From an uncultured archaeon (GTDB taxonomy: Archaea > Thermoproteota > EX4484-205 > JAAOZP01), in contig CALIBN010000002.1 in the NCBI GenBank assembly GCA_938045545.1, forward strand, positions 8,120 through 72,119: 64,000 nt of DNA. The letters are read 5' to 3'. The notes under the pieces are model-generated. The model made no database searches. It was given only the letters and a program-made list of their open reading frames with translations, and was not told where the DNA came from. The translations under genes were made by a program, and so were the position numbers. This document shows positions 1,728 through 40,413 of this stretch, piece by piece. Each line of letters begins with the position of its first letter. The stretch's first letter is position 1.

Positions 1728-1963
1728 ATTAATTTAATAGATATGTATGTCCTATTTAAACATTATTTCAAATCTCTGATTTTCCACAAATGATGCAAAA
1801 ACGAGCGTAAAAATAGACGAGCCACAGTATTTCACTGACATCTTAAAATAAGCAAAATCCTAATCCTTTAGTCTTCCGCTGAAAATGCTTTTATCAACTC
1901 TTTGTTTAAAAACATCGTGGAGAAAAGGATAAGATACATGGACAAGCTTGCTCATATAGATAG

Positions 1964-2314
1964 GAGGATGCTAATATAGAATCTTGGTTACCCTCCCAAG
2001 ATGAAGAGAGAACTTGATTAGCAATCTACAAGGCTTTTCAGGAGATAGTTGAAGCATTCTTTGACATGCTATCTATGAAACTCGACGAATTGAAAATACC
2101 CCCGAAGGACGATTATACTAACATTCTGTTAATTGAAGAAAAAGGATTAATCGATAAAGATACCTCCAGTATTCTAAGTGCAAACGGATTGAGAAATAGA
2201 CTTGTCTATAACTATAACAAAATATCAGACAAATTAGCGCTGGAATCGATAAAAACCCTCCTTCCCAAATTGGCTAAAATAAGGAAGGATTTAGAGTCAT
2301 GGACGAGTACATAG
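1964..2314 (+). pseudogene. HEPN/DUF86 (HepT-like) toxin-family gene, disrupted: in-frame TGA at 2015-2017, only ATG-initiated ORF is 2066-2314; catalytic His replaced (GLRNRLVYNY)
   Basis: C-terminal …ILSANGLRNRLVYNYNKISDKLALESIKTLLPKL matches DUF86 RNxLxHxY block except H->Y; upstream in-frame sequence LAIYKAFQEIVEAFFD resembles HEPN helix 2 but is separated by stop codons. Confidence 0.5.
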
Positions 2315-2522
2315 ACCTATACCAGTTATCCAGATTAAGGGTGTTTTAGCAATACTCCTATTCGGCTCTAAGGCGAAGGGAGAAACGATGATAAGAGATG
2401 CCGACGTTTGCATAGTTACACCAGAGGTTAACGATAAAGCAGGATTAATGCTAGACGTGTTCTTCAGGGTTAATAACCAGAAGTACGATATCTGGTTGTT
2501 TGAAGAACTTCACTCTATATGA
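2299..2522 (+). pseudogene. minimal nucleotidyltransferase (MNT/MntA-like antitoxin family), frameshifted
   Basis: ATG 2299 gives MDEYIDLYQLSRLRVF*; continuing in frame 0 gives …KGVLAILLFGSKAKGETMIRDADVCIV… (GS…DxD nucleotidyltransferase motif) to TGA 2520-2522; no start codon in the motif-bearing frame; overlaps HEPN stop. Confidence 0.5.
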
Positions 2523-2924
2523 AGGCTGAAATCATAAAGACCCACAAGGTAGTATGGTATAGAGATATAGACGAGCTTTATGACTATTTCGCTAACCTTA
2601 TGAAAATATGGAGAGACCAAGAAGTCAGAATTAGAACGTATATCAAAGAATTATAAAAGAGGCAGATCATAAATTGCTGGCCAACCGCTTAACGCATGAC
2701 GGAGGGAAATCAGGGTAGAAAAGAAAACTAAACACATTCTCATCGGAAACATCTTCTTCAAGTTGTAAACAGTAAAAAATGTTATTTATTTCTTAAGTAA
2801 TCTCTCCCACTAGCTCTGAGTCTTTCAATTTGGGATTTCTAGCCTTGTTCAAAGAGTCGATCGAATATACTGCAATCGTATTTAAATCGCTCACTTTAGA
2901 TTCAAGGTCTCAGCAACCATGTAG

Positions 2925-2996
2925 CGCGCACAAGCGGGAGTAAACGGGATTCATGCCGAGCAATTTCGGAATAAGCTGGCTCACGCTTACTGGTAA
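2925..2996 (+). pseudogene. fragment of a second HEPN/DUF86 gene (…EQFRNKLAHAYW*)
   Basis: Perfect RNxLAHxY HEPN motif at the 3' end of a frame otherwise full of stops; lies where the HEPN partner of the upstream MNT would be expected. Confidence 0.3.
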
Positions 2997-3046
2997 CTAA
3001 AGGATTGGAGTAAACTCGAAAATTCGTCCTTTCGAGCGCGTGAAGC

Positions 3047-3920: not shown

Positions 3921-4811
3921 TTAGGTTTCAGATATTAGCTTCTTGATAAATTCCACGTCCTTTTTCAAAACAGTTTTTCTCTCTTCCCGACCATACTTTC
4001 CTAGAGACTCGTCTTCGATGGTTAAATCGCCAGCATACCCAGCTTTCCTCAAGACCTGAACGACCCTTTTCAAGTCAATATCTCCTTCGTACAGAGGTAC
4101 TGCAACCTGAGGAAAATCTATCCCAGGACGCCTCTGCTTTTCCCTCCTAGCTTCAGGATATTTTAAATTTTTAAGATGAGTATGTTTAACTAGTTTTGCA
4201 TACTTTTCTATGAGTTCATGAACCTTACTCAACGGATAACCATACCAATAGAAGTTTCCGGTGTCTAACGTCAAGCCTATTCTCTCATCATTCACCTCTT
4301 TAAAAGCATGGTCTAAAAATCGCTCATCGTTACTAACATAGCCGTGATTCTCTACAGCATAAGCTACGCTGCTGCCCCTCGTCTCTCTTAAAAGGGATTT
4401 CATTATTTTAACGAAGTGCTCAGCATACTCTTCAATTGGCTTCTCTCCCATTATTTGCATATGCGAGTTTATCCGTATCACTTCAACCCCGATTTCATCC
4501 GCAAGTTGTGTCGCCTTTTTAATATAATTCAGCTCCTCTTCCAGATTTTCACTTGAAAAATCATTTTCCAACAATATGGTGCACGGTTTTATACCCATAT
4601 TTTTAGAAAATTCTAAAAATTCTTTTCTTTCACGAGCGTCTCTCAGGTTAAAACCTAGCTTCACTATGTGGCCCATATCTTCATACGTGTCTTGAGTTAA
4701 TGTTTTGTTGACGTACATTTCATACCTATCTAAACCCAAGTCCTTTAAACCTTTAACGAGATCCTCGTAACCAACCCATACTACTGTGAAATCCCTTACT
4801 GAGACATACAT
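3921..4811 (-). CDS. sugar phosphate isomerase/epimerase (xylose isomerase-like TIM barrel) family protein
   Basis: 296 aa; ENHG…ND…LDTGNF pattern of AP-endonuclease-2/xylose-isomerase-like TIM barrels. Confidence 0.6.
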   Translation of the reverse strand: MYVSVRDFTVVWVGYEDLVKGLKDLGLDRYEMYVNKTLTQDTYEDMGHIVKLGFNLRDARERKEFLEFSKNMGIKPCTILLENDFSSENLEEELNYIKKATQLADEIGVEVIRINSHMQIMGEKPIEEYAEHFVKIMKSLLRETRGSSVAYAVENHGYVSNDERFLDHAFKEVNDERIGLTLDTGNFYWYGYPLSKVHELIEKYAKLVKHTHLKNLKYPEARREKQRRPGIDFPQVAVPLYEGDIDLKRVVQVLRKAGYAGDLTIEDESLGKYGREERKTVLKKDVEFIKKLISET

Positions 4812-4947
4812 TTGATCCTACAATAACAGGGATATTAATAAACTTATCAAGTGGCCAATATGCCAAATCTCATAAAGCCATGCATAGCGATCTATAGAAG
4901 CAGTGTGGAAGCTGATTTGAAAAACATATAGTTCAATTAGTACTCGG

Positions 4948-5463
4948 CTATTTTGATTTTAACCCATATTTTTCCCAATGCGTTATTTCTTCAAGCGGTC
5001 TCCTGTTTCTGCTGGGTTTCTCATCAGGATAGCCGACTGAAACAGTACATAGAACTCTAAGACCGTCAGGTATTCCTAGCAGCTTCCTTATAGGTTCTTC
5101 AAAGGAAGTGTTCAAAACGCCCATCCAGCATGTTCCTAGCCCCATAGAGTGGGCAGCGAGAAGGAAGTTTTGCACGGAAACCGCGACATCCCCGTGATAC
5201 CAGTTGCTGCTCCTCCCGGGGTCAGCTATGAAAACCACTACGACGGGGCTGTCAGCCATGAACCTTCCGTACCTATGTATCTCCGCAAGCTTCCTCCTAG
5301 TCTCAGGGTTCTTCACCACTAGAAACTCCCATGGCTGAGAATTGTTAGCTGAGGGAGCCCATCTGGCTGCTTCAAGACACTCCATTATCTTCTCGTCCTC
5401 CACAGGAGTCGACTTATACTTTCTAATGCTCCGCCTAGTTTTAATCGCCTCCATCACATCCAT
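4948..5463 (-). CDS. nitroreductase family protein
   Basis: AIKTRRSIRKY…APSANNSQPWEF signature of FMN nitroreductase fold. Confidence 0.75.
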   Translation of the reverse strand: MDVMEAIKTRRSIRKYKSTPVEDEKIMECLEAARWAPSANNSQPWEFLVVKNPETRRKLAEIHRYGRFMADSPVVVVFIADPGRSSNWYHGDVAVSVQNFLLAAHSMGLGTCWMGVLNTSFEEPIRKLLGIPDGLRVLCTVSVGYPDEKPSRNRRPLEEITHWEKYGLKSK

Positions 5464-5596
5464 CTTTAAACACCTAAGAAGATTTCATGAAACATCTTAA
5501 TATGGTTTACTATGATCTGGAAGACCCCTTTAACAACAGAATTCCAGAATTCGATTAGGGAAAGTAGCAAACGGGATTTGGAAAACTAGAAAGTTT

Positions 5597-6769
5597 TTAA
5601 GCCTTACTGGCTCCGGCTTCGAATACCCAGCTATCAAGGTTTTTACAAATTAATGTAAGGATCCGCATAGACTCCTCCGGTCTCATGGCGAGAAAAAGCG
5701 CGGCAACATGCTTGCAGAACTGTTTTTGACCAATTCTTTTAACCCAGTCCTCACAGTCATGCTTCAGCCTCCTGTTAGGAATATTTATGATGACAGCGTA
5801 TTCCTTAACCCTAGCTTTAACCTTCTCCTCTCCAGCCTCCTCAACAACCACTTTCCCAACCAGTTCCCTCGCCCTCTCCAGCCTACCCACCTCAAGGAAG
5901 GCTGAGACCAGTTTCTCAATGTCTTTTTCACCTGAAGAAAGCACTGCTTCAACCCTGCGAACCGTCCTCCTTAAACCCTGCTCTTCAAAGTAGTTTAGAA
6001 CCCTGTTCAAAGCCTCCTCCTGAGGCTTTTCCATGACTCCGACGATTCTCATCATTTGAAGCGCGTTCTTCACCGCATATCCCCTGAAGTGGTTGTTAAA
6101 ATAGACGTAAACCTTCTTAGCCTTGTACGAGAGCTCCTCAAGCTTTCCCTTCCACTCCTCAAGCTCCTCAATCCTGTAATCGTAATAGTACCAAGGCCTG
6201 TTCCCCCTGCCGTGAAACCTTACGTATGAAAAATCTCCCGTAACCTTCAACAATGCAGGCAGAAGAGGCTCGTCGACAATACAGTAACCCACATTGTTCT
6301 CGGACAGAACCCTGAAAGACTCATCCATCAGCCAAGTCGGATGCCTGAACTCGACAGTAAAATCGTAACCTTCAGGAAGGCTTTCTAAGAACTCTTTAAA
6401 GCCTTTGAAGGCTGCAACAGGCTTGGGTGGAAGCTGGAAAAGCAGTGGCCCAAGCTTCCCGTCTTCCTTGAGAGGAGCCAGCGCACTCAGGAAGAGCTTT
6501 AAATCCCTCAGAGCACCCTTCTCCAAATCCATTAGTTTCACGTGAGTCACTGTTTTAGGAACCTTAAGGGAAAATACGAAGCCTTTCGGCGAGGACCTGG
6601 CAATAGTACGTATGAATCCCAGGTTAGGCTGTTTATAGAAGGTTGAATCCACTTCAACCGTCTTGAAAACATCCGCATACTGCTGGAACATTTTCTCACT
6701 ACTTGTGTAGAACACAGTTAGCCAATCCTTATAGCTCCAGCCCGATGTCCCTACAACAATATTATCCAA
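5597..6769 (-). CDS. DUF72 (UPF0759) domain protein with C-terminal SWIM-like zinc-finger segment
   Basis: N-terminal VGTSGWSYKDW…FYTSS is the DUF72 signature; C-terminal …CEDWVKRIGQKQFCKHVAALFL resembles SWIM CxH-containing finger. Confidence 0.55.
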   Translation of the reverse strand: MDNIVVGTSGWSYKDWLTVFYTSSEKMFQQYADVFKTVEVDSTFYKQPNLGFIRTIARSSPKGFVFSLKVPKTVTHVKLMDLEKGALRDLKLFLSALAPLKEDGKLGPLLFQLPPKPVAAFKGFKEFLESLPEGYDFTVEFRHPTWLMDESFRVLSENNVGYCIVDEPLLPALLKVTGDFSYVRFHGRGNRPWYYYDYRIEELEEWKGKLEELSYKAKKVYVYFNNHFRGYAVKNALQMMRIVGVMEKPQEEALNRVLNYFEEQGLRRTVRRVEAVLSSGEKDIEKLVSAFLEVGRLERARELVGKVVVEEAGEEKVKARVKEYAVIINIPNRRLKHDCEDWVKRIGQKQFCKHVAALFLAMRPEESMRILTLICKNLDSWVFEAGASKA

Positions 6770-7245
6770 CCCTTTAGAACATCTACTCTACGGGTGATAA
6801 ACTTTTAGTTGAATCTGACACTCCTATGACTAAAGCCAACTGGATTCCCGTCGTCGCCCTCGGGCCCACCATACCGGGTAAAGTGCTTTATGGAAAACGT
6901 ATACCGCGCGCTTTTCTTAGGTTACTTCTACTATAAGGCAGGCAGGAACCTTTTAGAACCTGTGACTACCATTTCAGCAACTTGTTCTTTAACATACCGT
7001 ATGTATGGATGTAGCCGGCGGCAGTATCCTTTAGAATCCATCCTTTTTTCCGGAATTCGCGTGCACTGGTTTTCCCAATGGACTCTGAAACCCCATATTT
7101 AAATCCAGATACTGATCCTTAGAAAGATTCGTTTAAACAAGCTAACCACATAGAGCAATTTAGAAGATTAGTATCAACCTCGTCTGCAATCTATCTAAAA
7201 TGTTATATAATCTGTTGTAAGCTTCTAAAAAGGTAGGGGTATTTA

Positions 7246-8076
7246 ATGGCTCTCGGAGAAAAAGTTATAGCTTTGCAACTGCTTAAAAAAAGGTTAGGGA
7301 TGCTCTGGGAATATTTAACAAGCCCCGATATAAAGGAAGTGGCTGAGAAGAAACTCGTCGCGATTCTCCCAGTAGGCTCGGTCGAGATACATGGACCCCA
7401 CATGCCGACTGGAACAGACTCCATAACTATTCGCGAGATAACTAGAATGGCCGCTGAAAAGGAGCCTGCAGTAGTTTTGCCTACGCTATACTATGTTTAT
7501 GTGCCTGAGAACCGGCATTTTCCTGGAACCATATCGCTAAGCGCTAGGACAATCCTTACTATTCTTGAGGAAATATGCGACGAGGTGGCGAGAAACGGTT
7601 TTAAAAAAATCCTTATTGTAAACGGTCATGGAGGAAACAATAATCTTCTAAGGGTTTTCCTGAGGGAAAGCCTGCATAAGAAGAAGGATTATACTATTTA
7701 CGCGTTAATTGAGCCCTGGTCATCAATAGAAGAGATTGCTGAGAAAATATGCGAGAGCAAGATAACTGGGCATGCTTGCGAGCGTGAAACCAGCATGGGG
7801 CTATACTTGTTTGAAAACCTGATTAAGATGGAGAATGTTAAGCATGAGGCGGAGATAGGAGGTACGAATCTGCCTGGAGTAGAGACGCCTGCCGACTGGC
7901 AGGCCTACGCGGTCCAGCTTTATCTCGGTGACCCTAGGCTGGCAACTAAGGAGAAGGGCAGAATCATGGTTGAAAAGCTTGTTGATTACGTGGCAGATGC
8001 TATAAGAAGGGTTAAGCAGGATGAGAGGGTTCCAGCGATACTCGACGATTTCTACAGGAAGGCCTACGGGCAGTAG
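7246..8076 (+). CDS. creatininase-family amidohydrolase (ArfB/creatinine amidohydrolase family)
   Basis: VAILPVGSVEIHGPHMPTGTD and IVNGHGGN metal-binding motifs of creatininase fold. Confidence 0.75.
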   Translation: MALGEKVIALQLLKKRLGMLWEYLTSPDIKEVAEKKLVAILPVGSVEIHGPHMPTGTDSITIREITRMAAEKEPAVVLPTLYYVYVPENRHFPGTISLSARTILTILEEICDEVARNGFKKILIVNGHGGNNNLLRVFLRESLHKKKDYTIYALIEPWSSIEEIAEKICESKITGHACERETSMGLYLFENLIKMENVKHEAEIGGTNLPGVETPADWQAYAVQLYLGDPRLATKEKGRIMVEKLVDYVADAIRRVKQDERVPAILDDFYRKAYGQ

Positions 8077-8102
8077 TGAATGCCAGCATGGAAAGCAGCA
8101 TG

Positions 8103-9224
8103 CTAAAACCAGTCTGAGTGCCAGATATGGGGATTTCCTGGTGGAAACAATGTTTCTAAAGTTTTCTCAACCTTCCCCTCATGCTTCACGGCTTGGTCGA
8201 CTAAGACGTTCTTCGGATCCCTATATCCAAGAATGAGTTGCATCAACACCCATTGCGGGAGCTCAACCCAGTTCGCCGACAAGGTTTCTGAAAGAGACAC
8301 CCCGGATTCGGAAACTTCGAGAGTAGCAATGCCTATGTCGGTTTTAAAAGATATTTGCGAAGCCAGATCCTTCACACACGCTTTTTCCAAACGGTCCTCA
8401 AATACTGAAACAAGCTTCTCGAAGGTCGACTTGAGATTAATGATTCTCCCCATGCCGTCTGAAGCATATGGATAGTCGATGCTAATCGTGCAGCCGAGGC
8501 TTTTACAAAGCTCGGCGAAAGGATGGTCAAACGGGACGTATATTTCAAGCTCACTAGCCTTCTTCTGGAAAGCAGTGCCGCACGCGTAGCGGAGCACATG
8601 CTCATACAGGGCAGCGTCTACAGCACCCACCTCAGTTATCCTCATTACCCTCGGCCAACGGTCAGAAGCACAATAGGCAACTATCCTTCCAGACTCATCT
8701 TCGAAGACTGTTCCGTCAGCAGGTACTCCCCACCAGCTTCCCTTTCTAAATCTGAACCATTCACCCCTATATCTTTTAAGGGGGCCCGTCCTATGCTCGT
8801 TAGCCAACTCGTAAATGTCCAAGATAGCTTCAGCATCGTCCTTCACCATCGGGCGGGCTTTAAGCCCAGGCCTAGCCCTCTCAGCATTTCTTAAAGGCAT
8901 GGTTATCTTGCAATTGGGAAGCGTTGAAGCATAACCCCATCTAATATAATAGTCAGGTATGCCGAACAACATTGAAACATCATATTCGTTTCTAACCATG
9001 TATTCGATAGAAAACTCCATAACCTTTCTAGAATATCCTTTCATCCTGTGTTCCTCGAGCGTTCCAACTCCACCTACTCCGCCCATTTTCAGGAAGGTTT
9101 TCCCAACTTTTACTTCAAGATCATTGATGATGAGCCAGCTAACCGGCGACCCTCCCAGCTCATCCAGAAGAAGCTCAACTCTATGGGATCTTGCCGAGTC
9201 AGTAACCCTTATCTCGCTTCCCAT
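8103..9224 (-). CDS. GNAT-family N-acetyltransferase, Eis-like three-domain architecture
   Basis: 373 aa, N-terminal acetyl-CoA motif region (…HRMKGYSRKVMEFSIEYM…) followed by long C-terminal extension as in Eis/SCP2-containing GNATs. Confidence 0.45.
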   Translation of the reverse strand: MGSEIRVTDSARSHRVELLLDELGGSPVSWLIINDLEVKVGKTFLKMGGVGGVGTLEEHRMKGYSRKVMEFSIEYMVRNEYDVSMLFGIPDYYIRWGYASTLPNCKITMPLRNAERARPGLKARPMVKDDAEAILDIYELANEHRTGPLKRYRGEWFRFRKGSWWGVPADGTVFEDESGRIVAYCASDRWPRVMRITEVGAVDAALYEHVLRYACGTAFQKKASELEIYVPFDHPFAELCKSLGCTISIDYPYASDGMGRIINLKSTFEKLVSVFEDRLEKACVKDLASQISFKTDIGIATLEVSESGVSLSETLSANWVELPQWVLMQLILGYRDPKNVLVDQAVKHEGKVEKTLETLFPPGNPHIWHSDWF

Positions 9225-35407: not shown

Positions 35408-36283
35408 ATGGTTTACAGAATAGGAATAGTCGGGTCAGATAATTCTCACGCAATTACTTTCTCACAGATTGCGAACGGCATGGATAAGGAAAATTACGTA
35501 CCGGGTTTCAAAGCAACCCACATCTTCGGGTTCGACGAAAAAAGAAACAGGGAGGTCGCAGAGAAAGGCGGTATTGAAAATATTGTTTCTGACGTAAACG
35601 AGATGATCGGGAAAATTGATATTGCGTTCGTGGTTTTTAGACACGGTGGACTCCACCTGGAATACGCGAAGCCCTTCATAGAAAGCGGGACACCGGTTTT
35701 CGTGGATAAGCCTTTAGCAGCCACGGTTGCAGACGCTAAAAAGATAATCCAGCTAGCGAAGGAGAGACAAACCCTTTTAATGAGCTTTTCGACGTTAAGG
35801 TTTACGGATACCGTGCAAGAGCTGAAAGGAATTTTAAAGAACGAGGAACCGGTTTTCCTAAGCGTCCTTGGACCAGGAGACCTTGAAAGCGAGTATGGCG
35901 GATTGATCTTCTACGGGATCCATTGTGCAGAGATTTTTAATGAGGTTGCGGGAACGGGGGTGAAGGAAGTACACGCTGTTGCGAAGGGTAAAAGCATTGT
36001 TGCAATACTCGTCCATGAGAGACTGATTGGGAGTATAAAAATCTCTCCAGAAATACCATATGTTTTCTCGGTCGAAGGTCTAACTAATAAAACCCATTTC
36101 TCAGCCAAGGTTGACTCTAAGGACTGTTATAAGAGGGGAATGATCAAGATTAGGGAGATGCTTGACAAGAAGCAGTGGATACTTTCTGAAGGAGAAATGC
36201 TTGAGCCAGTAGCTGTTGTTAAGGCTATAGAGGAAAGCGTTAGAGAATCTTCTAAAAAGCCTATAAGTTCTAGCCAGTCTTAA
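35408..36283 (+). CDS. Gfo/Idh/MocA-like NAD(P)-binding oxidoreductase
   Basis: MVYRIGIVGSDNSHA Rossmann start; …VDKP… conserved segment. Confidence 0.6.
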   Translation: MVYRIGIVGSDNSHAITFSQIANGMDKENYVPGFKATHIFGFDEKRNREVAEKGGIENIVSDVNEMIGKIDIAFVVFRHGGLHLEYAKPFIESGTPVFVDKPLAATVADAKKIIQLAKERQTLLMSFSTLRFTDTVQELKGILKNEEPVFLSVLGPGDLESEYGGLIFYGIHCAEIFNEVAGTGVKEVHAVAKGKSIVAILVHERLIGSIKISPEIPYVFSVEGLTNKTHFSAKVDSKDCYKRGMIKIREMLDKKQWILSEGEMLEPVAVVKAIEESVRESSKKPISSSQS

Positions 36284-36845
36284 TGCTTATAGAGACTCCT
36301 TCCTGAGTGGGCACTATAATGGTTCTCCAAACCCTCCCAGAGGCTTCGTTTAGAAAAGCATCCACAGTGCCGTAGGTATGCCTGACGTTGTGCGCAAGCA
36401 CCACTCCGCCGCTGGGGATCCTACTCTCAACCAGACGGAAAAACTCTAAGTAGTGCTCCTTCTCAATATCTATGAAGACTAAGTTCAGCTCTTCAAATTT
36501 CCTAACATGATTAAATGCATCGCCGTTAACTGGCATGATCAAGTTCTCCAAGTGATGCCTAACTACAAGACTCTTAAGACTCTTGAATCTTTGAATAGTC
36601 TTCTCAACTGCGTAGACATTGCCGTCAACCCCTGATTCTAAAATAGCTCTAGCAATCCATATTGTTGAAAACCCTGTGCCTGCACCAGCGTCCATGGCTT
36701 TCAGCCTTCCAAACCGTAGGGCCGTCAGGAAGGATGTTGAGTAAAGCACGCAGCCATCATCCATGCTTATCGTCGGAACCCCTAGGTCTCTAGAGGCAGC
36801 ATACGCCTCCCGGATTATGCTGTTCCAGGCATAGTCTTCCCGCAT
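36270..36845 (-). CDS. class I SAM-dependent O-methyltransferase (CCoAOMT-like)
   Basis: …AMDAGAGTGFST… SAM-binding motif I; …LVFIDIEKEHY… motif typical of cation-dependent OMTs. Confidence 0.65.
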   Translation of the reverse strand: MREDYAWNSIIREAYAASRDLGVPTISMDDGCVLYSTSFLTALRFGRLKAMDAGAGTGFSTIWIARAILESGVDGNVYAVEKTIQRFKSLKSLVVRHHLENLIMPVNGDAFNHVRKFEELNLVFIDIEKEHYLEFFRLVESRIPSGGVVLAHNVRHTYGTVDAFLNEASGRVWRTIIVPTQEGVSISIKTG

Positions 36846-36903
36846 GGCTGTTAAAAATAATCTGCGGTTCCAACTTATAAACTTGGCAGAGGAGGCTTGC
36901 GGA

Positions 36904-37146
36904 TTAATATTTATGACGGGCTTGACGACAGCCTTCAGTCAACTCTTCAAGCTCGTCTCTAACATAGGATGAAATCAGGTCCCTGACAACGTTTGAATTT
37001 GCTTTTAAGACGGCTACCTTTGCCTGTTGAAATATGCTTAGTGCCCTTGGTCCCATACCGTATACGATGACTGCATCCGGCTTAAGCTGAAGTATACGGT
37101 CTGCAGGCCGGCCCTTCCCTCTGAAATGCTCACCCTCGTTAAGCAT
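36904..37146 (-). CDS. small NifX/NifB-C-terminal-like (dinitrogenase FeMo-cofactor-binding family) protein
   Basis: EHFRGKG…PDAVIVYGMGPRALSIFQQAKVAVL resembles HFG…vdvvi..giG..a fold motif. Confidence 0.4.
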   Translation of the reverse strand: MLNEGEHFRGKGRPADRILQLKPDAVIVYGMGPRALSIFQQAKVAVLKANSNVVRDLISSYVRDELEELTEGCRQARHKY

Positions 37147-37379
37147 AGTCCCTTTTTCAAAACTCTTCCCTCCTCATCAAGCTCAATCATCAAGAATAAG
37201 GGGGCTCTGGCCAAAATGTTCGGATAAGCGTGAATCTAAGCCACGGTCATCCTCCACAGGTATTACAATCCTCATTTTGAATCATCATGCTTACATACTT
37301 GTCTCTATATACGTCTTACTGTTAATAGACCTCCTCTATTCCTTTTTGTCCAAGGAATCCTTATCCTAGACAATTACTT

Positions 37380-37733
37380 CCTTAACTCCTCAAGCCTATT
37401 GTTTACGTAACCGAGCTCCTGCTGGATAAGCCTTCTCTGTTCCTCAGAAAAACAACTCTTGCTCCCTAGCCGTCAGGGGTAAGGCAAACATCGGTGGCTC
37501 ATACTCATGCTCCCCGCGGAGCCCATGAAAAACCCACAGGTATAGCTTCCAGAAACGCCGAGCGTAATTATGACGGTAGGGCGATGGCAGCCACCAGAAC
37601 CCGCTCGCAATATCAGTACTCCTACTTACCGACCCCCCTTAACGCTTAATTCTTCAAGCCTTTTTCTAACGGTTTTCAACCGAGGCTCCAAAATCTTAAT
37701 CTGCTGCTCAAGCATCGTTCGCTCCTGCTCCCC
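37380..37733. repeat. two diverged direct copies (~70% identity, ~95 bp each, 37380-37466 and 37637-37733) of an element beginning CCTTAAC…TCAAGCCT…
   Basis: Direct alignment of the two segments; on the minus strand each copy encodes a similar coiled-coil-like peptide (…EEQRRLIQQELGYVNNRLEELRK / …EQERTMLEQQIKILEPRLKTVRKRLEELSVK) in different frames. Confidence 0.5.
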
Positions 37734-37995
37734 GCATAAGCCGGCGGAAAGCTCATTCTAAACGGAGTGAGTTCAGACGGCATAGCGTGCTAAAGGGCTT
37801 TCGCAAAGGGAAGCAGGAGGAGGATGGGCGTCTCTAGGGGGATTGCGTGAGGCTTTTGCAGAGCGCTAGGAGAAAGACTGCTCAAGCCCTTAGCGAAGGC
37901 AAGCCAATACGCATTGGGCTCCCCCCTCAACAAAACTGTTCATAGAAAACATGGAAGACAATGTCAAACAGGCTTTTCTAAGAGCATTCTCACAG

Positions 37996-39129
37996 CTATC
38001 TGAATGCTTTTTTCCATTCTTTCAGAATTTCTCGCGCAACGTTAAAGCTTTCAACACTGATTGAGAATATGACTCCAGTTTTATTTTCAAGAGATTTCGA
38101 CACTTTATCGACCCAGGATCCTGGTTTCTCACCCTCTTGGGGACCCTCAGTCCATATTAGACACACGTGTTTCCTTTGAAACAATTCCACGGTTTCCTTT
38201 AAGCCGTAGAACTTGGCGGGACTTCCGAAGAAGAATGCTTTAAAGGCTCCGCTTGACAAGATTGGTTCAAGAACCTGCCTGCCGTCTGAAGCCTCGCTGC
38301 AGCAGAAATGACCCATGCCTCCGTCGAAAAGCCTGACTGAAAACTCGTTAACCGGGATGCAGAACTTTCTGTATTGAGCCGGGTTCATCATCACCGCCAC
38401 GTCCTCGCAGAGTCTAACACCGCCTTTATCCATCCATACGTTAGGCGTTCCGTGGAACCCCTGGTTAAGAGGCTCGCCGACTATTTTCTTCTGCGCAATT
38501 GAGAACTCAACGTATACTTCGGCAACCCTCTTAAGAAGCTCCATTGCAAAGTCCGGGTGGCGATGGAAATCGCTCAGCAGCTTCGGTCCCCTGAGTAGGT
38601 AGGCTATGTCTAACGGGCCCTGAGTGTCGCACAGGTATACTCTTACCCCTGTTCCCTCAAGTTTTTTAACGAAATACTCTTCTGTCTCAATAACGCGCGT
38701 CATCAAGCTTTGACGAGACCAAGGATCCTTTAACTCGCCTAGGTCCGGAGGATCCTTCTTTAAAACCGGCTCTTTAACCCATGGCATTTGGTCGGAGAAG
38801 GGTTGTACGACTATCTCGCTACCAAATCCGCTCGGCACGATTCCAACGCCATAATTAGCCCTTACGCATGGCATGCCATCATCTTGAAGAAGGGCATGAG
38901 AATATACTGAGGCCAGTTGAGACAAAAGCATCTTATCCATATCGTAATATGTTTCATAGTATTTGAAGGAGGGCCAAGGTTCTGGAGGAGGACAGTTAAT
39001 GATCAAAGGAGGGATTTCCACTTGTTTAAAATTCCATGCTGCAGCAATCCTGCTTCTCGCCTCATCGACTACCTCTAGATCCAATCTTGAGCTTACCTTC
39101 TTAACCCATTTTTCCACATCAATGCTCAA
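37996..39129 (-). CDS. uroporphyrinogen decarboxylase (URO-D)/MtaA-like family protein
   Basis: 377 aa TIM-barrel-like pattern with URO-D family hallmarks; no specific catalytic assignment. Confidence 0.55.
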   Translation of the reverse strand: MSIDVEKWVKKVSSRLDLEVVDEARSRIAAAWNFKQVEIPPLIINCPPPEPWPSFKYYETYYDMDKMLLSQLASVYSHALLQDDGMPCVRANYGVGIVPSGFGSEIVVQPFSDQMPWVKEPVLKKDPPDLGELKDPWSRQSLMTRVIETEEYFVKKLEGTGVRVYLCDTQGPLDIAYLLRGPKLLSDFHRHPDFAMELLKRVAEVYVEFSIAQKKIVGEPLNQGFHGTPNVWMDKGGVRLCEDVAVMMNPAQYRKFCIPVNEFSVRLFDGGMGHFCCSEASDGRQVLEPILSSGAFKAFFFGSPAKFYGLKETVELFQRKHVCLIWTEGPQEGEKPGSWVDKVSKSLENKTGVIFSISVESFNVAREILKEWKKAFR

Positions 39130-39169
39130 AGTCGACGGTTAGCCTACTAAAAACTATTTAAGCTTTCCT

Positions 39170-39967
39170 ATGAAATCCGGGAAAGATTTATATCGTTTAA
39201 ACTTAGACAGAGGAAGCATGAGCAGCTTGAAGATTGGCGCTCAACTAATTATCTGGGGAGCAAAGCCGCGGGAAAACCTTAAAGGAGTTCTTGAAGAAGT
39301 AAGGGAGGCCGGATACGATGGGATAGAAACCTCTCCTGAAATAGTTTCTACAGACATTATGGAGACGAGAAGGCTTTTGCTCGAAAAAGGCTTAAGGCTT
39401 GTCGCATTACACATGGGTGTTGGAAACATGGAACAGGTTGAACCGGCGGCAAGGCTATTGGAAAGGCTTGAAGGAGAATATTTGACTTTTAGCGGTCCAG
39501 GTGGAAAAGGCTCTGAGGAAGACTATTTAAACTGCGCAGAGTTTTTAAACAAGGCGGGAAGAATTGCCAGGAAGCACGGGGTTAAAACCTGCTATCATAA
39601 TCACGGGCACGAAATAGCTAATAATCAAAGGGGAATAGGAATAATCATTCAGAAAACGGAGCCGGAGTTAGTCGGACTATGCGTTGACACGTATTGGGTT
39701 AAATTCGGCGGGGCAAACCCGCTTCAGTTCATCAAGACCAATAGGGAGAGGATCGAATACCTGCATCTGAAAGACGGGTCTGAGGAAGACATGAAAAACA
39801 GGAAGTTCTCCGAGCTTGGAAAGGGCTCGATAGATTTTCCAGCCATACTTGGCTTCACGACGCAGCTTGGAGTAAAGTGGGTTGTCGTTGAACAAGATTT
39901 GACCCCGAGAAGCCCGTTCGAAAGCATGTTGGAGAGCAGGAATTACTTAAGAAAAATCGGGTATTAG
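39170..39967 (+). CDS. sugar phosphate isomerase/epimerase (xylose isomerase-like TIM barrel)
   Basis: …GYDGIE…, …YHNHGHE…, …LHLKD… metal-site pattern. Confidence 0.75.
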   Translation: MKSGKDLYRLNLDRGSMSSLKIGAQLIIWGAKPRENLKGVLEEVREAGYDGIETSPEIVSTDIMETRRLLLEKGLRLVALHMGVGNMEQVEPAARLLERLEGEYLTFSGPGGKGSEEDYLNCAEFLNKAGRIARKHGVKTCYHNHGHEIANNQRGIGIIIQKTEPELVGLCVDTYWVKFGGANPLQFIKTNRERIEYLHLKDGSEEDMKNRKFSELGKGSIDFPAILGFTTQLGVKWVVVEQDLTPRSPFESMLESRNYLRKIGY

Positions 39968-40413
39968 TTCGCTTTCCACATATAAAGGCGATCGTATACC
40001 ATCCGTATTTCATCCATGTGCCATCGGAATGTCTATATGCCCGCATTTGTTAACATAATTGGGAGCTGCTGAGGAGCGTGAAACAGGGAGTTTTTGAAGA
40101 GGCATCTTAGCCTGCATTGTAACGGCTGAAACCCGCCTTTAATCGGGCATAGGCCTGGCGTGGCTTTTTCTTAGATTATAAGAAGGCGGGGTATGAGCTA
40201 TACGCTTTATGGCAGGGGCTGAATTGACACAGCCCTTAACCCGGTAGGATGAGCTCCTAAGGGCGACGAACCGGGAACCCAATACCTTAAGTAGAAGGAT
40301 GCCAACCGAGGAAAATCGGGTGCTATTTCACAAGCACGTGCTAACAGGCAGGCACTACAGTGTCAAACGCATGGAGGACTAAAAAACATAAATAGCCTTC
40401 CTCAGCCTCACGC

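Follow-up and report, generated by a model that had tools for sequence, protein, structure and literature searches.

A gene-poor interval of an uncultured archaeal genome read as the decaying remains of a four-gene cluster of DUF134, two DUF5320 genes and a NifX-like gene

Introduction

How can about 1.1 kb of DNA with the base composition of coding sequence hold no credible gene? The question is raised by an interval in a stretch of 64,000 nucleotides from an uncultured archaeon, which we analyzed at full length and call the window. An initial annotation of positions 37147 to 37995 described a gene-free region with two diverged direct copies of an element of about 100 bp, and proposed either a recently disrupted gene with an internal duplication or a structured noncoding RNA with repeated modules. 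By comparing the interval with its counterparts in related archaea, we arrived at another reading, to which we assign a probability of about 90%: positions 36846 to 37995 are the non-functional relic of a four-gene cluster (DUF134, DUF5320-1, DUF5320-2, and a NifX-like gene) from an ancestor of a Brockarchaeota-like clade.

Results

When ORFs of at least 110 aa are counted, coding coverage of the window is 88.5%. The ORF-poor gap proved wider than first described, reaching from 36846 to 37995, and is one of two gaps longer than 1 kb in the window. The absence of a credible ORF from 37147 to 37995 was borne out, the longest ORF wholly within that range being 63 aa with both strands checked. The coding-like composition was also confirmed: GC content in 200-nt segments of the region ranges from 0.41 to 0.565, against a mean of 0.465 for the whole window, so the region is not AT-rich. 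A local GC peak of 0.50 to 0.565 lies at 37400 to 37900.

Relatives were fetched by means of the flanking URO-D-like protein, which gave 13 genome loci and 18 metagenome loci. The close relatives (80 to 98% identity) are MAGs that carry the labels Brockarchaeota, Thermoproteota, Nitrososphaerota, Thaumarchaeota, or Crenarchaeota; several of these MAGs come from hot-spring samples. Where the cluster is intact, the homologous interval holds ORFs of Pfam families. Loci L006, L005, and L014 carry all four as intact ORFs, bounded by the same URO-D-like and methyltransferase genes, and L003 has three intact ORFs along with a frameshifted DUF134. The arrangement in L006 is as follows:

DUF134, on the strand opposite to the URO-D-like gene, 114 aa, 69.5 bits on PF02001
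Divergent promoter region, about 100 nt, A/T-rich, between DUF134 and DUF5320-1
DUF5320-1, on the same strand as the URO-D-like gene, 85 aa, 27.1 bits on PF17253
DUF5320-2, on the same strand as the URO-D-like gene, 82 aa, 17.9 bits on PF17253
NifX-like gene, on the same strand as the URO-D-like gene, 123 aa, 62 bits on PF02579

The basal relative L017 carries a larger cluster, in the order DUF134, DUF5320, DUF5320, NifX-like, DUF5320, NifX-like. The ancestral layout, as the intact relatives show, was a DUF134 helix-turn-helix gene transcribed divergently from an operon in which two DUF5320 paralogs in tandem precede a NifX-like gene.

In tblastn searches, all four genes of the relatives matched the window relic, and no second copy of any of the four was found elsewhere in the 64-kb window. 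Alignment of the window with its relatives (alignment A1 and pairwise alignments) revealed a deletion of about 357 nt and at least 12 smaller indels, and every gene remnant in the interval carries premature stops. The features of the interval and its flanks are:

36270-36845, minus strand, class-I methyltransferase gene, one flank of the interval
36904-37275, minus strand, NifX-like gene (Nitro_FeMo-Co, PF02579), broken by a +1/−1 indel pair
37276-37373, minus strand, spacer between DUF5320-2 and the NifX-like gene, with a deletion of about 60 nt at 37332/33 (alignment A1, columns 1035-1206)
37374-37611, minus strand, DUF5320-2 pseudogene, TTG start kept, with indels and a premature TGA
37622-37788, minus strand, DUF5320-1 pseudogene, about 55 codons of the 3' end remaining, with a 1-nt deletion at 37735/36
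37788/37789, no strand, deletion junction at which about 357 nt of the intact relatives are absent (alignment A1, columns 245-602)
37789-37945, plus strand, DUF134 3' remnant, approximately residues 56-104 of the 114-aa ortholog
37996-39129, minus strand, URO-D-like gene, the other flank

We then asked what the two repeated elements are. The DUF5320-1 relic includes the copy at 37637-37733, whose minus-strand peptide ends in EQERTMLEQQIKILEPRLKTVRKRLEELSVKGGR at a stop codon; tblastn matched this relic to residues 52-85 of 85 with 74% identity. The DUF5320-2 relic includes the copy at 37380-37466, whose peptide ends in EEQRRLIQQELGYVNNRLEELRK at a stop codon, and was matched by tblastn in two different frames, one covering residues 8-56 and the other residues 60-82. 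Compared with L003, L006, and L005, the DUF5320-2 relic has a 10-nt deletion directly after its TTG start (about 37599-37607), a 2-nt insertion at 37532-37533, and 2-nt deletions near 37505 and near 37454; the premature TGA is at 37473-37475. The initial annotation had also pointed out a third frame that is open for about 65 codons and has no start. We found it as described (64 codons, no ATG, GTG, or TTG), and it is the ancestral N-terminal frame of DUF5320-2. Programmed frameshifting or stop recoding at TGA 37473-37475 was considered and rejected, as the frameshift sites differ from those of L007 and L015 and the intact relatives need none.

At the profile level, the peptide of the DUF5320-1 relic matches positions 72-99 of the 99 in PF17253 (22.6 bits, E = 2.4e-4), rising to 24.8 bits after frame repair, and the repaired DUF5320-2 relic scores 13.7 bits. 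These fragments fall under the gathering threshold of 27 bits because they are truncated. The syntenic orthologs of DUF5320-1 reach it (27.1 bits in L006, 33.4 in L003, and 30.7 in a further one), and among the orthologs of DUF5320-2 (17.9 bits in L006, 26.0 in L003, and 30.0 in L017) only that of L017 does so.

The related elements exist, but their nucleotide likeness is weaker than first stated. At the DNA level the core of the repeat is 27 nt with 78% identity (37381-37407 versus 37645-37671, a spacing of 264), and the elements are about 72% identical over 81 aligned nt. Their local alignment score is 15, against 8.0 ± 1.4 for shuffled sequences, 2 of 500 of which reached 15. Both of the quoted peptides are present and related; they lie in the same frame of a single translation, 264 nt being 88 codons, and not in different frames as claimed. 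DUF5320-1 and DUF5320-2 are 40% identical over 65 aa (BLASTP, E = 8e-10) and most alike in the C-terminal coiled coil. The repeat of about 100 bp is thus the conserved C-terminal coiled-coil coding segment common to both DUF5320 paralogs.

Two related coiled-coil peptides that follow one another on one strand, in a shared frame and 88 codons apart, could also be the two halves of an internal duplication in a single, recently disrupted gene, which was the main reading of the initial annotation. We consider this highly improbable. In L003, L005, L006, and L014 the homologous DNA forms two separate ORFs, intact DUF5320-1 and DUF5320-2 each having its own start and stop, with a spacer of about 13 nt that contains a G-rich Shine-Dalgarno-like run; L017 carries three such genes interleaved with two NifX-like genes; and part of the region belongs to DUF134, a gene of the other strand. 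Each element is therefore the 3' end of its own gene, the two genes being separate paralogs in tandem. What stands of the disrupted-gene reading is that the region is coding DNA with several frameshifts, but its main lesion is the deletion of about 357 nt, not a frameshift.

The plus-strand remnant of DUF134 at 37789-37945 had been overlooked. Three 1-nt deletions (37797/98, 37819/20, and 37849/50) and an 11-nt deletion at 37949/50 interrupt it, and the ancestral stop maps to 37955, near the 11-nt deletion. L006 DUF134 aligned by tblastn to 37811-37933 of the window with 64% identity over residues 61-104. The frame-repaired relic (51 aa) matches positions 51-88 of the 98 in PF02001 with 26.9 bits, just under the gathering threshold of 27 bits, as expected for a fragment. 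The L006 ortholog lies well above this threshold and also matches Sigma70_r4_2, as well as NF003257 below the cutoff of that model. DUF134 in the intact relatives is under strong purifying selection (dN/dS 0.13), with variation mostly at third positions. A sigma-70-region-4-like HTH and the divergent placement from the operon suggest that DUF134 may have been the local transcription regulator of the cluster. A PDB sequence search with DUF134 gave no meaningful relatives, and no functional study of DUF134, UPF0251, or COG1342 was found in the literature searched. As DUF134 thus has no characterized or structurally solved relative, we infer this role.

The GC peak at 37400-37900, together with a few inverted repeats of 12 to 13 nt, might be taken as the mark of a structured noncoding RNA with repeated modules, or of a relic co-opted as a regulatory RNA. 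However, the rise in GC coincides with the Arg/Gly-rich coding remnant of DUF134, the homologous DNA of the relatives consists of ORFs matching Pfam families, and L001 and L002, the nearest relatives, have lost the sequence outright, which moreover evolves at a neutral rate (see below). No Rfam match was obtained at E ≤ 1 in 36000-39500, nor any at gathering score over the whole window, and an ARAGORN scan found no tRNA or tmRNA. Folding gave no excess stability: on either strand, the z scores of the whole region and of the individual relics ranged from −1.2 to +1.9, similar to coding controls. The fold and covariance-model checks that the initial annotation had called for thus returned no RNA signal, and we regard an RNA of either kind as extremely improbable.

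The deletion of about 357 nt took the 5' half of DUF134, the divergent promoter region of about 100 nt, and approximately the first 50 codons of DUF5320-1. In the relatives, the deleted promoter region contains an A/T-rich TATA-like box. Conservation is high throughout this divergent intergenic region of DUF134 and DUF5320 (7522-7619 in L006, with homologous stretches in L003, L004, and L005), which contains ATATTTATATATTTGTGCA and, at a distance of about 35 nt, a second TGTGCAT motif. These could be a candidate TATA box and operator half-sites for DUF134. The conserved block TCTATTAACAGTAAGACGTATATAGA (about 37304-37329) survives in the spacer that separates DUF5320-2 from the NifX-like gene, about 30 nt upstream of the NifX-like ATG. 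Its position and conservation suggest a TATA-type promoter belonging to the NifX-like gene itself.

The NifX-like gene extends beyond the region first described. Positions 37147-37275, which had been taken as gene-free, are its 5' third, and the 80-aa ORF at 36904-37146, which had been taken as a separate neighbor, is one end of the same gene. A 1-nt insertion at 37210 and a 1-nt deletion at 37154/55 enclose 18 shifted codons with three stops, the first of them TGA 37183-37185, leaving the two ends as ORFs 37183-37275 (30 aa) and 36904-37146 (80 aa). The tblastn match covers residues 1-123. The repaired peptide matches the whole PF02579 domain (positions 2-92 of 94) with 51.9 bits, above the gathering threshold of 26.3 bits. 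Away from the shifted codons, dN/dS of the window gene is 0.04 to 0.31 versus the relatives; in the intact relatives the gene is under strong purifying selection (dN/dS 0.11), with variation mostly at third positions.

The +1/−1 pair of the NifX-like gene is compensating, its members 55 nt apart, and in the ancestral frame 16 of the 18 enclosed codons are identical to those of L006, which random decay would not usually produce. Either these lesions are very recent or they are assembly errors, and they are the only set in the interval that could plausibly be artefactual. The verdict for 37276-37995 is independent of their status. We examined whether the frameshifts fall in the homopolymers CCCCC and AAAAAGGG, as long-read-type errors would, and rejected this: the relatives share CCCCC, and the alignment puts the changes elsewhere. 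What did change is one added C in GG(C)CAG and one base missing from AAA(G)CAGG.

To place the lesions in time, we turned to the closest relative, L001, an independent MAG with 98.1% nucleotide identity to the window in the URO-D-like gene. L001 shares the left junction of the large deletion and the first 5 to 8 nt or so beyond it, and then lacks a further 817 bp (window 36967-37783). This loss is a second, nested deletion. Across the flanking genes (1.8 kb of coding DNA) the window and L001 have no gaps and are 98.1% and 95.5% identical, with dS of 0.061 and 0.097 and dN of 0.009 and 0.033. In the shared relic, by comparison, there are 9 gap events in 212 nt, and the JC distance is 0.075 on a small sample of 210 aligned nt. 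As this distance lies between the two flanking dS values, the relic has evolved neutrally since before the window and L001 separated.

These comparisons also bear on whether the organism in fact has an intact cluster and the window merely contains sequencing or assembly errors, namely indels and a collapsed segment. Several lesions are just 1 to 2 nt long, and the NifX-like pair restores the frame around codons that largely match L006, both of which such errors would produce; exact-protein look-ups of three window ORFs also turned up no second assembly of the contig. In contrast, the junction of the deletion of about 357 nt is also present in the independently assembled L001, which differs by 2 to 7% in sequence; lesions of 9 to 11, 60, and 357 nt are atypical of read errors; the concentration of gaps in the relic beside gapless flanking genes would be hard to obtain in this way; and similar decay states recur in the independent assembly pairs L002/L018, L004/L027, and L007/L015. 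We consider it very unlikely that errors explain the interval.

The alignment shows a course of decay for the four-gene relic. In a first step, the deletion of about 357 nt removed the shared divergent promoter and both 5' ends, killing DUF134 and DUF5320-1 and severing upstream transcription of DUF5320-2. In a second, the remnants drifted neutrally and gathered small indels. In a third, the NifX-like gene, with its apparent own promoter, would have been struck last, by the two 1-nt indels. The small indels of DUF5320-2 and the NifX-like gene are seen only in the window because the closest relatives have deleted those parts.

Decay of the cluster is not confined to the window. Placed on the URO-D tree, its states in the relatives mark at least five lineages that were affected separately. 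The states observed in relatives are:

L002 and L018: 1.25-kb deletion and frameshifts in the NifX remnant
L016: both DUF5320 genes deleted
L008: whole cluster gone
L004 and L027: DUF5320-2 truncated
L007 and L015: both DUF5320 genes frameshifted
L003: DUF134 frameshifted

The URO-D-like genes of L007, L015, and L016 are essentially identical, and the cluster states differ (locus coordinates about 7180-8560, 4680-6060, and 4680-5350, respectively); L016 has also lost the DUF134 start and the NifX upstream region. These three loci represent a pseudogene-then-deletion polymorphism inside one population-level lineage.

The intact DUF5320 paralogs are weakly constrained (dN/dS 0.56 and 0.66), which fits their being the first genes lost. 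Among the orthologs in L003, L004, L005, L006, L014, and L027, variable sites are spread evenly over the three codon positions (16, 14, and 20 for DUF5320-1; 25, 18, and 19 for DUF5320-2). Either the DUF5320 genes encode small proteins that evolve fast, or they are already heading for loss across the clade. They seem readily dispensable there, with the NifX-like and DUF134 neighbors constrained where retained.

Elsewhere in the window, an insert of about 359 bp (about 39971-40329, within 39950-40329) separates two xylose-isomerase-like TIM-barrel genes. It occurs only in the window and L001 (86.6% identity) and is absent from all other close relatives, in which the two genes are nearly adjacent. 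It is flanked by a 21-nt direct repeat (81%), a duplicate of the upstream gene's 3' end that resembles a target duplication or an att scar. The insert gave no Rfam match at E ≤ 5, no other copy in the window or the fetched loci, and folding z scores of −1.7 and −1.6.

The other ORF-poor stretch longer than 1 kb in the window is 1728-3046. Its 82-aa ORF at 2066-2314 matches only positions 49-117 of the 120 in a HepT-like ribonuclease profile, and could be an N-truncated toxin gene; two ORFs of 44 to 45 aa (2388-2656) gave no Pfam match. The stretch may be another decayed locus, possibly a toxin-antitoxin module.

Discussion

The interval contains four pseudogenes of already known families, midway through deletional decay: the feature is real, unannotated, and ordinary. 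Since the four genes are intact in related hot-spring archaea, ordinary gene decay accounts for it. No present function is expected of anything in the interval, though some residual transcription or a micro-peptide could persist, and no new mechanism or molecule is implied. In practical terms, the annotation of about 1.1 kb that a gene caller leaves empty, or fills with spurious small ORFs (the 30-aa and 80-aa NifX fragments, a 45-aa ORF, and others), should list four pseudogenes. Across these closely related uncultured archaea, the loci form a stepwise erosion series that runs from the intact cluster through promoter deletion and indels to a nested larger deletion.

What the ancestral cluster did is suggested by family names only: DUF5320 and the NifX-like protein would have formed a small metal-cluster or cofactor-handling module. 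The alternation of the two gene types in L017 suggests that DUF5320 was a partner of the NifX-like protein. No functional study of DUF5320 was found in the literature searched, and a PDB sequence search with it gave no meaningful relatives. We wondered whether the recurrent loss may be non-random, that is, an adaptive or condition-dependent loss of an uncharacterized metal-cofactor-handling module, for example under a changed supply of Mo, W, Cu, or Fe-S. We think this unlikely; if true, the recurrent losses would supply a series of natural knock-outs from which functions could be assigned to DUF5320 and DUF134.

Compared with known families, the DUF5320 relics follow the pattern of PF17253, with a Gly/Pro/aromatic-rich N-terminus ahead of an E/Q/K/L coiled coil that terminates in RLEEL; they differ in that the window genes are dead and the second paralog is divergent, scoring 17.9 to 26.0 bits in close relatives. 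For DUF134/UPF0251 (PF02001; PRK04217; a predicted HTH related to sigma-70 region 4), the window keeps the HTH-coding part (...MGVSRGIA-RLLQSARRKTAQALSEGKPIRIG...), whereas only the C-terminal 45% or so survives, with three frameshifts and with promoter and start gone. The NifX-like gene shares a full-length PF02579 match with stand-alone Nitro_FeMo-Co proteins (MTH1175, TM1290/TM1816, PH0822; Orp5/Orp8), although the window gene is interrupted by stops. Its PDB relatives are the structural-genomics proteins 1t3v, 1o13, 2yx6, and 1eo1 (E = 7e-14 to 5e-9), and it scores 33.8 bits on the NCBIfam model MrpORP against a cutoff of 450, a match to the C-terminal domain only.

In Desulfovibrio, proteins of the Nitro_FeMo-Co fold belong to the ORP complex, and binding of metal-sulfide or Fe-S clusters has been predicted or demonstrated for them; the ORP locus comprises MinD-like ATPases with ferredoxin motifs (Orp3/4) and an Mrp/NBP35 protein (Orp9/MrpORP), arranged in two divergent operons (PMC6345978). 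In every relative that we examined, no MinD/Mrp-type ATPase, ferredoxin-domain protein, or sigma-54 regulator adjoins the cluster. With neither a MinD/Mrp ATPase nor a sigma-54 regulator nearby, the locus is therefore not an ORP locus. Unlike that locus, the interval that the URO-D-like and methyltransferase genes enclose in the relatives contains DUF134, DUF5320, and Nitro_FeMo-Co genes and nothing else.

The closest parallel is ordinary pseudogene decay in prokaryotes, with which the interval shares intact orthologs elsewhere, frame-disrupting indels, a promoter-removing deletion, a neutral rate, a nested deletion, and independent losses in sister lineages. From this known process it shows no essential difference, and it is notable only for how often the cluster has been hit.
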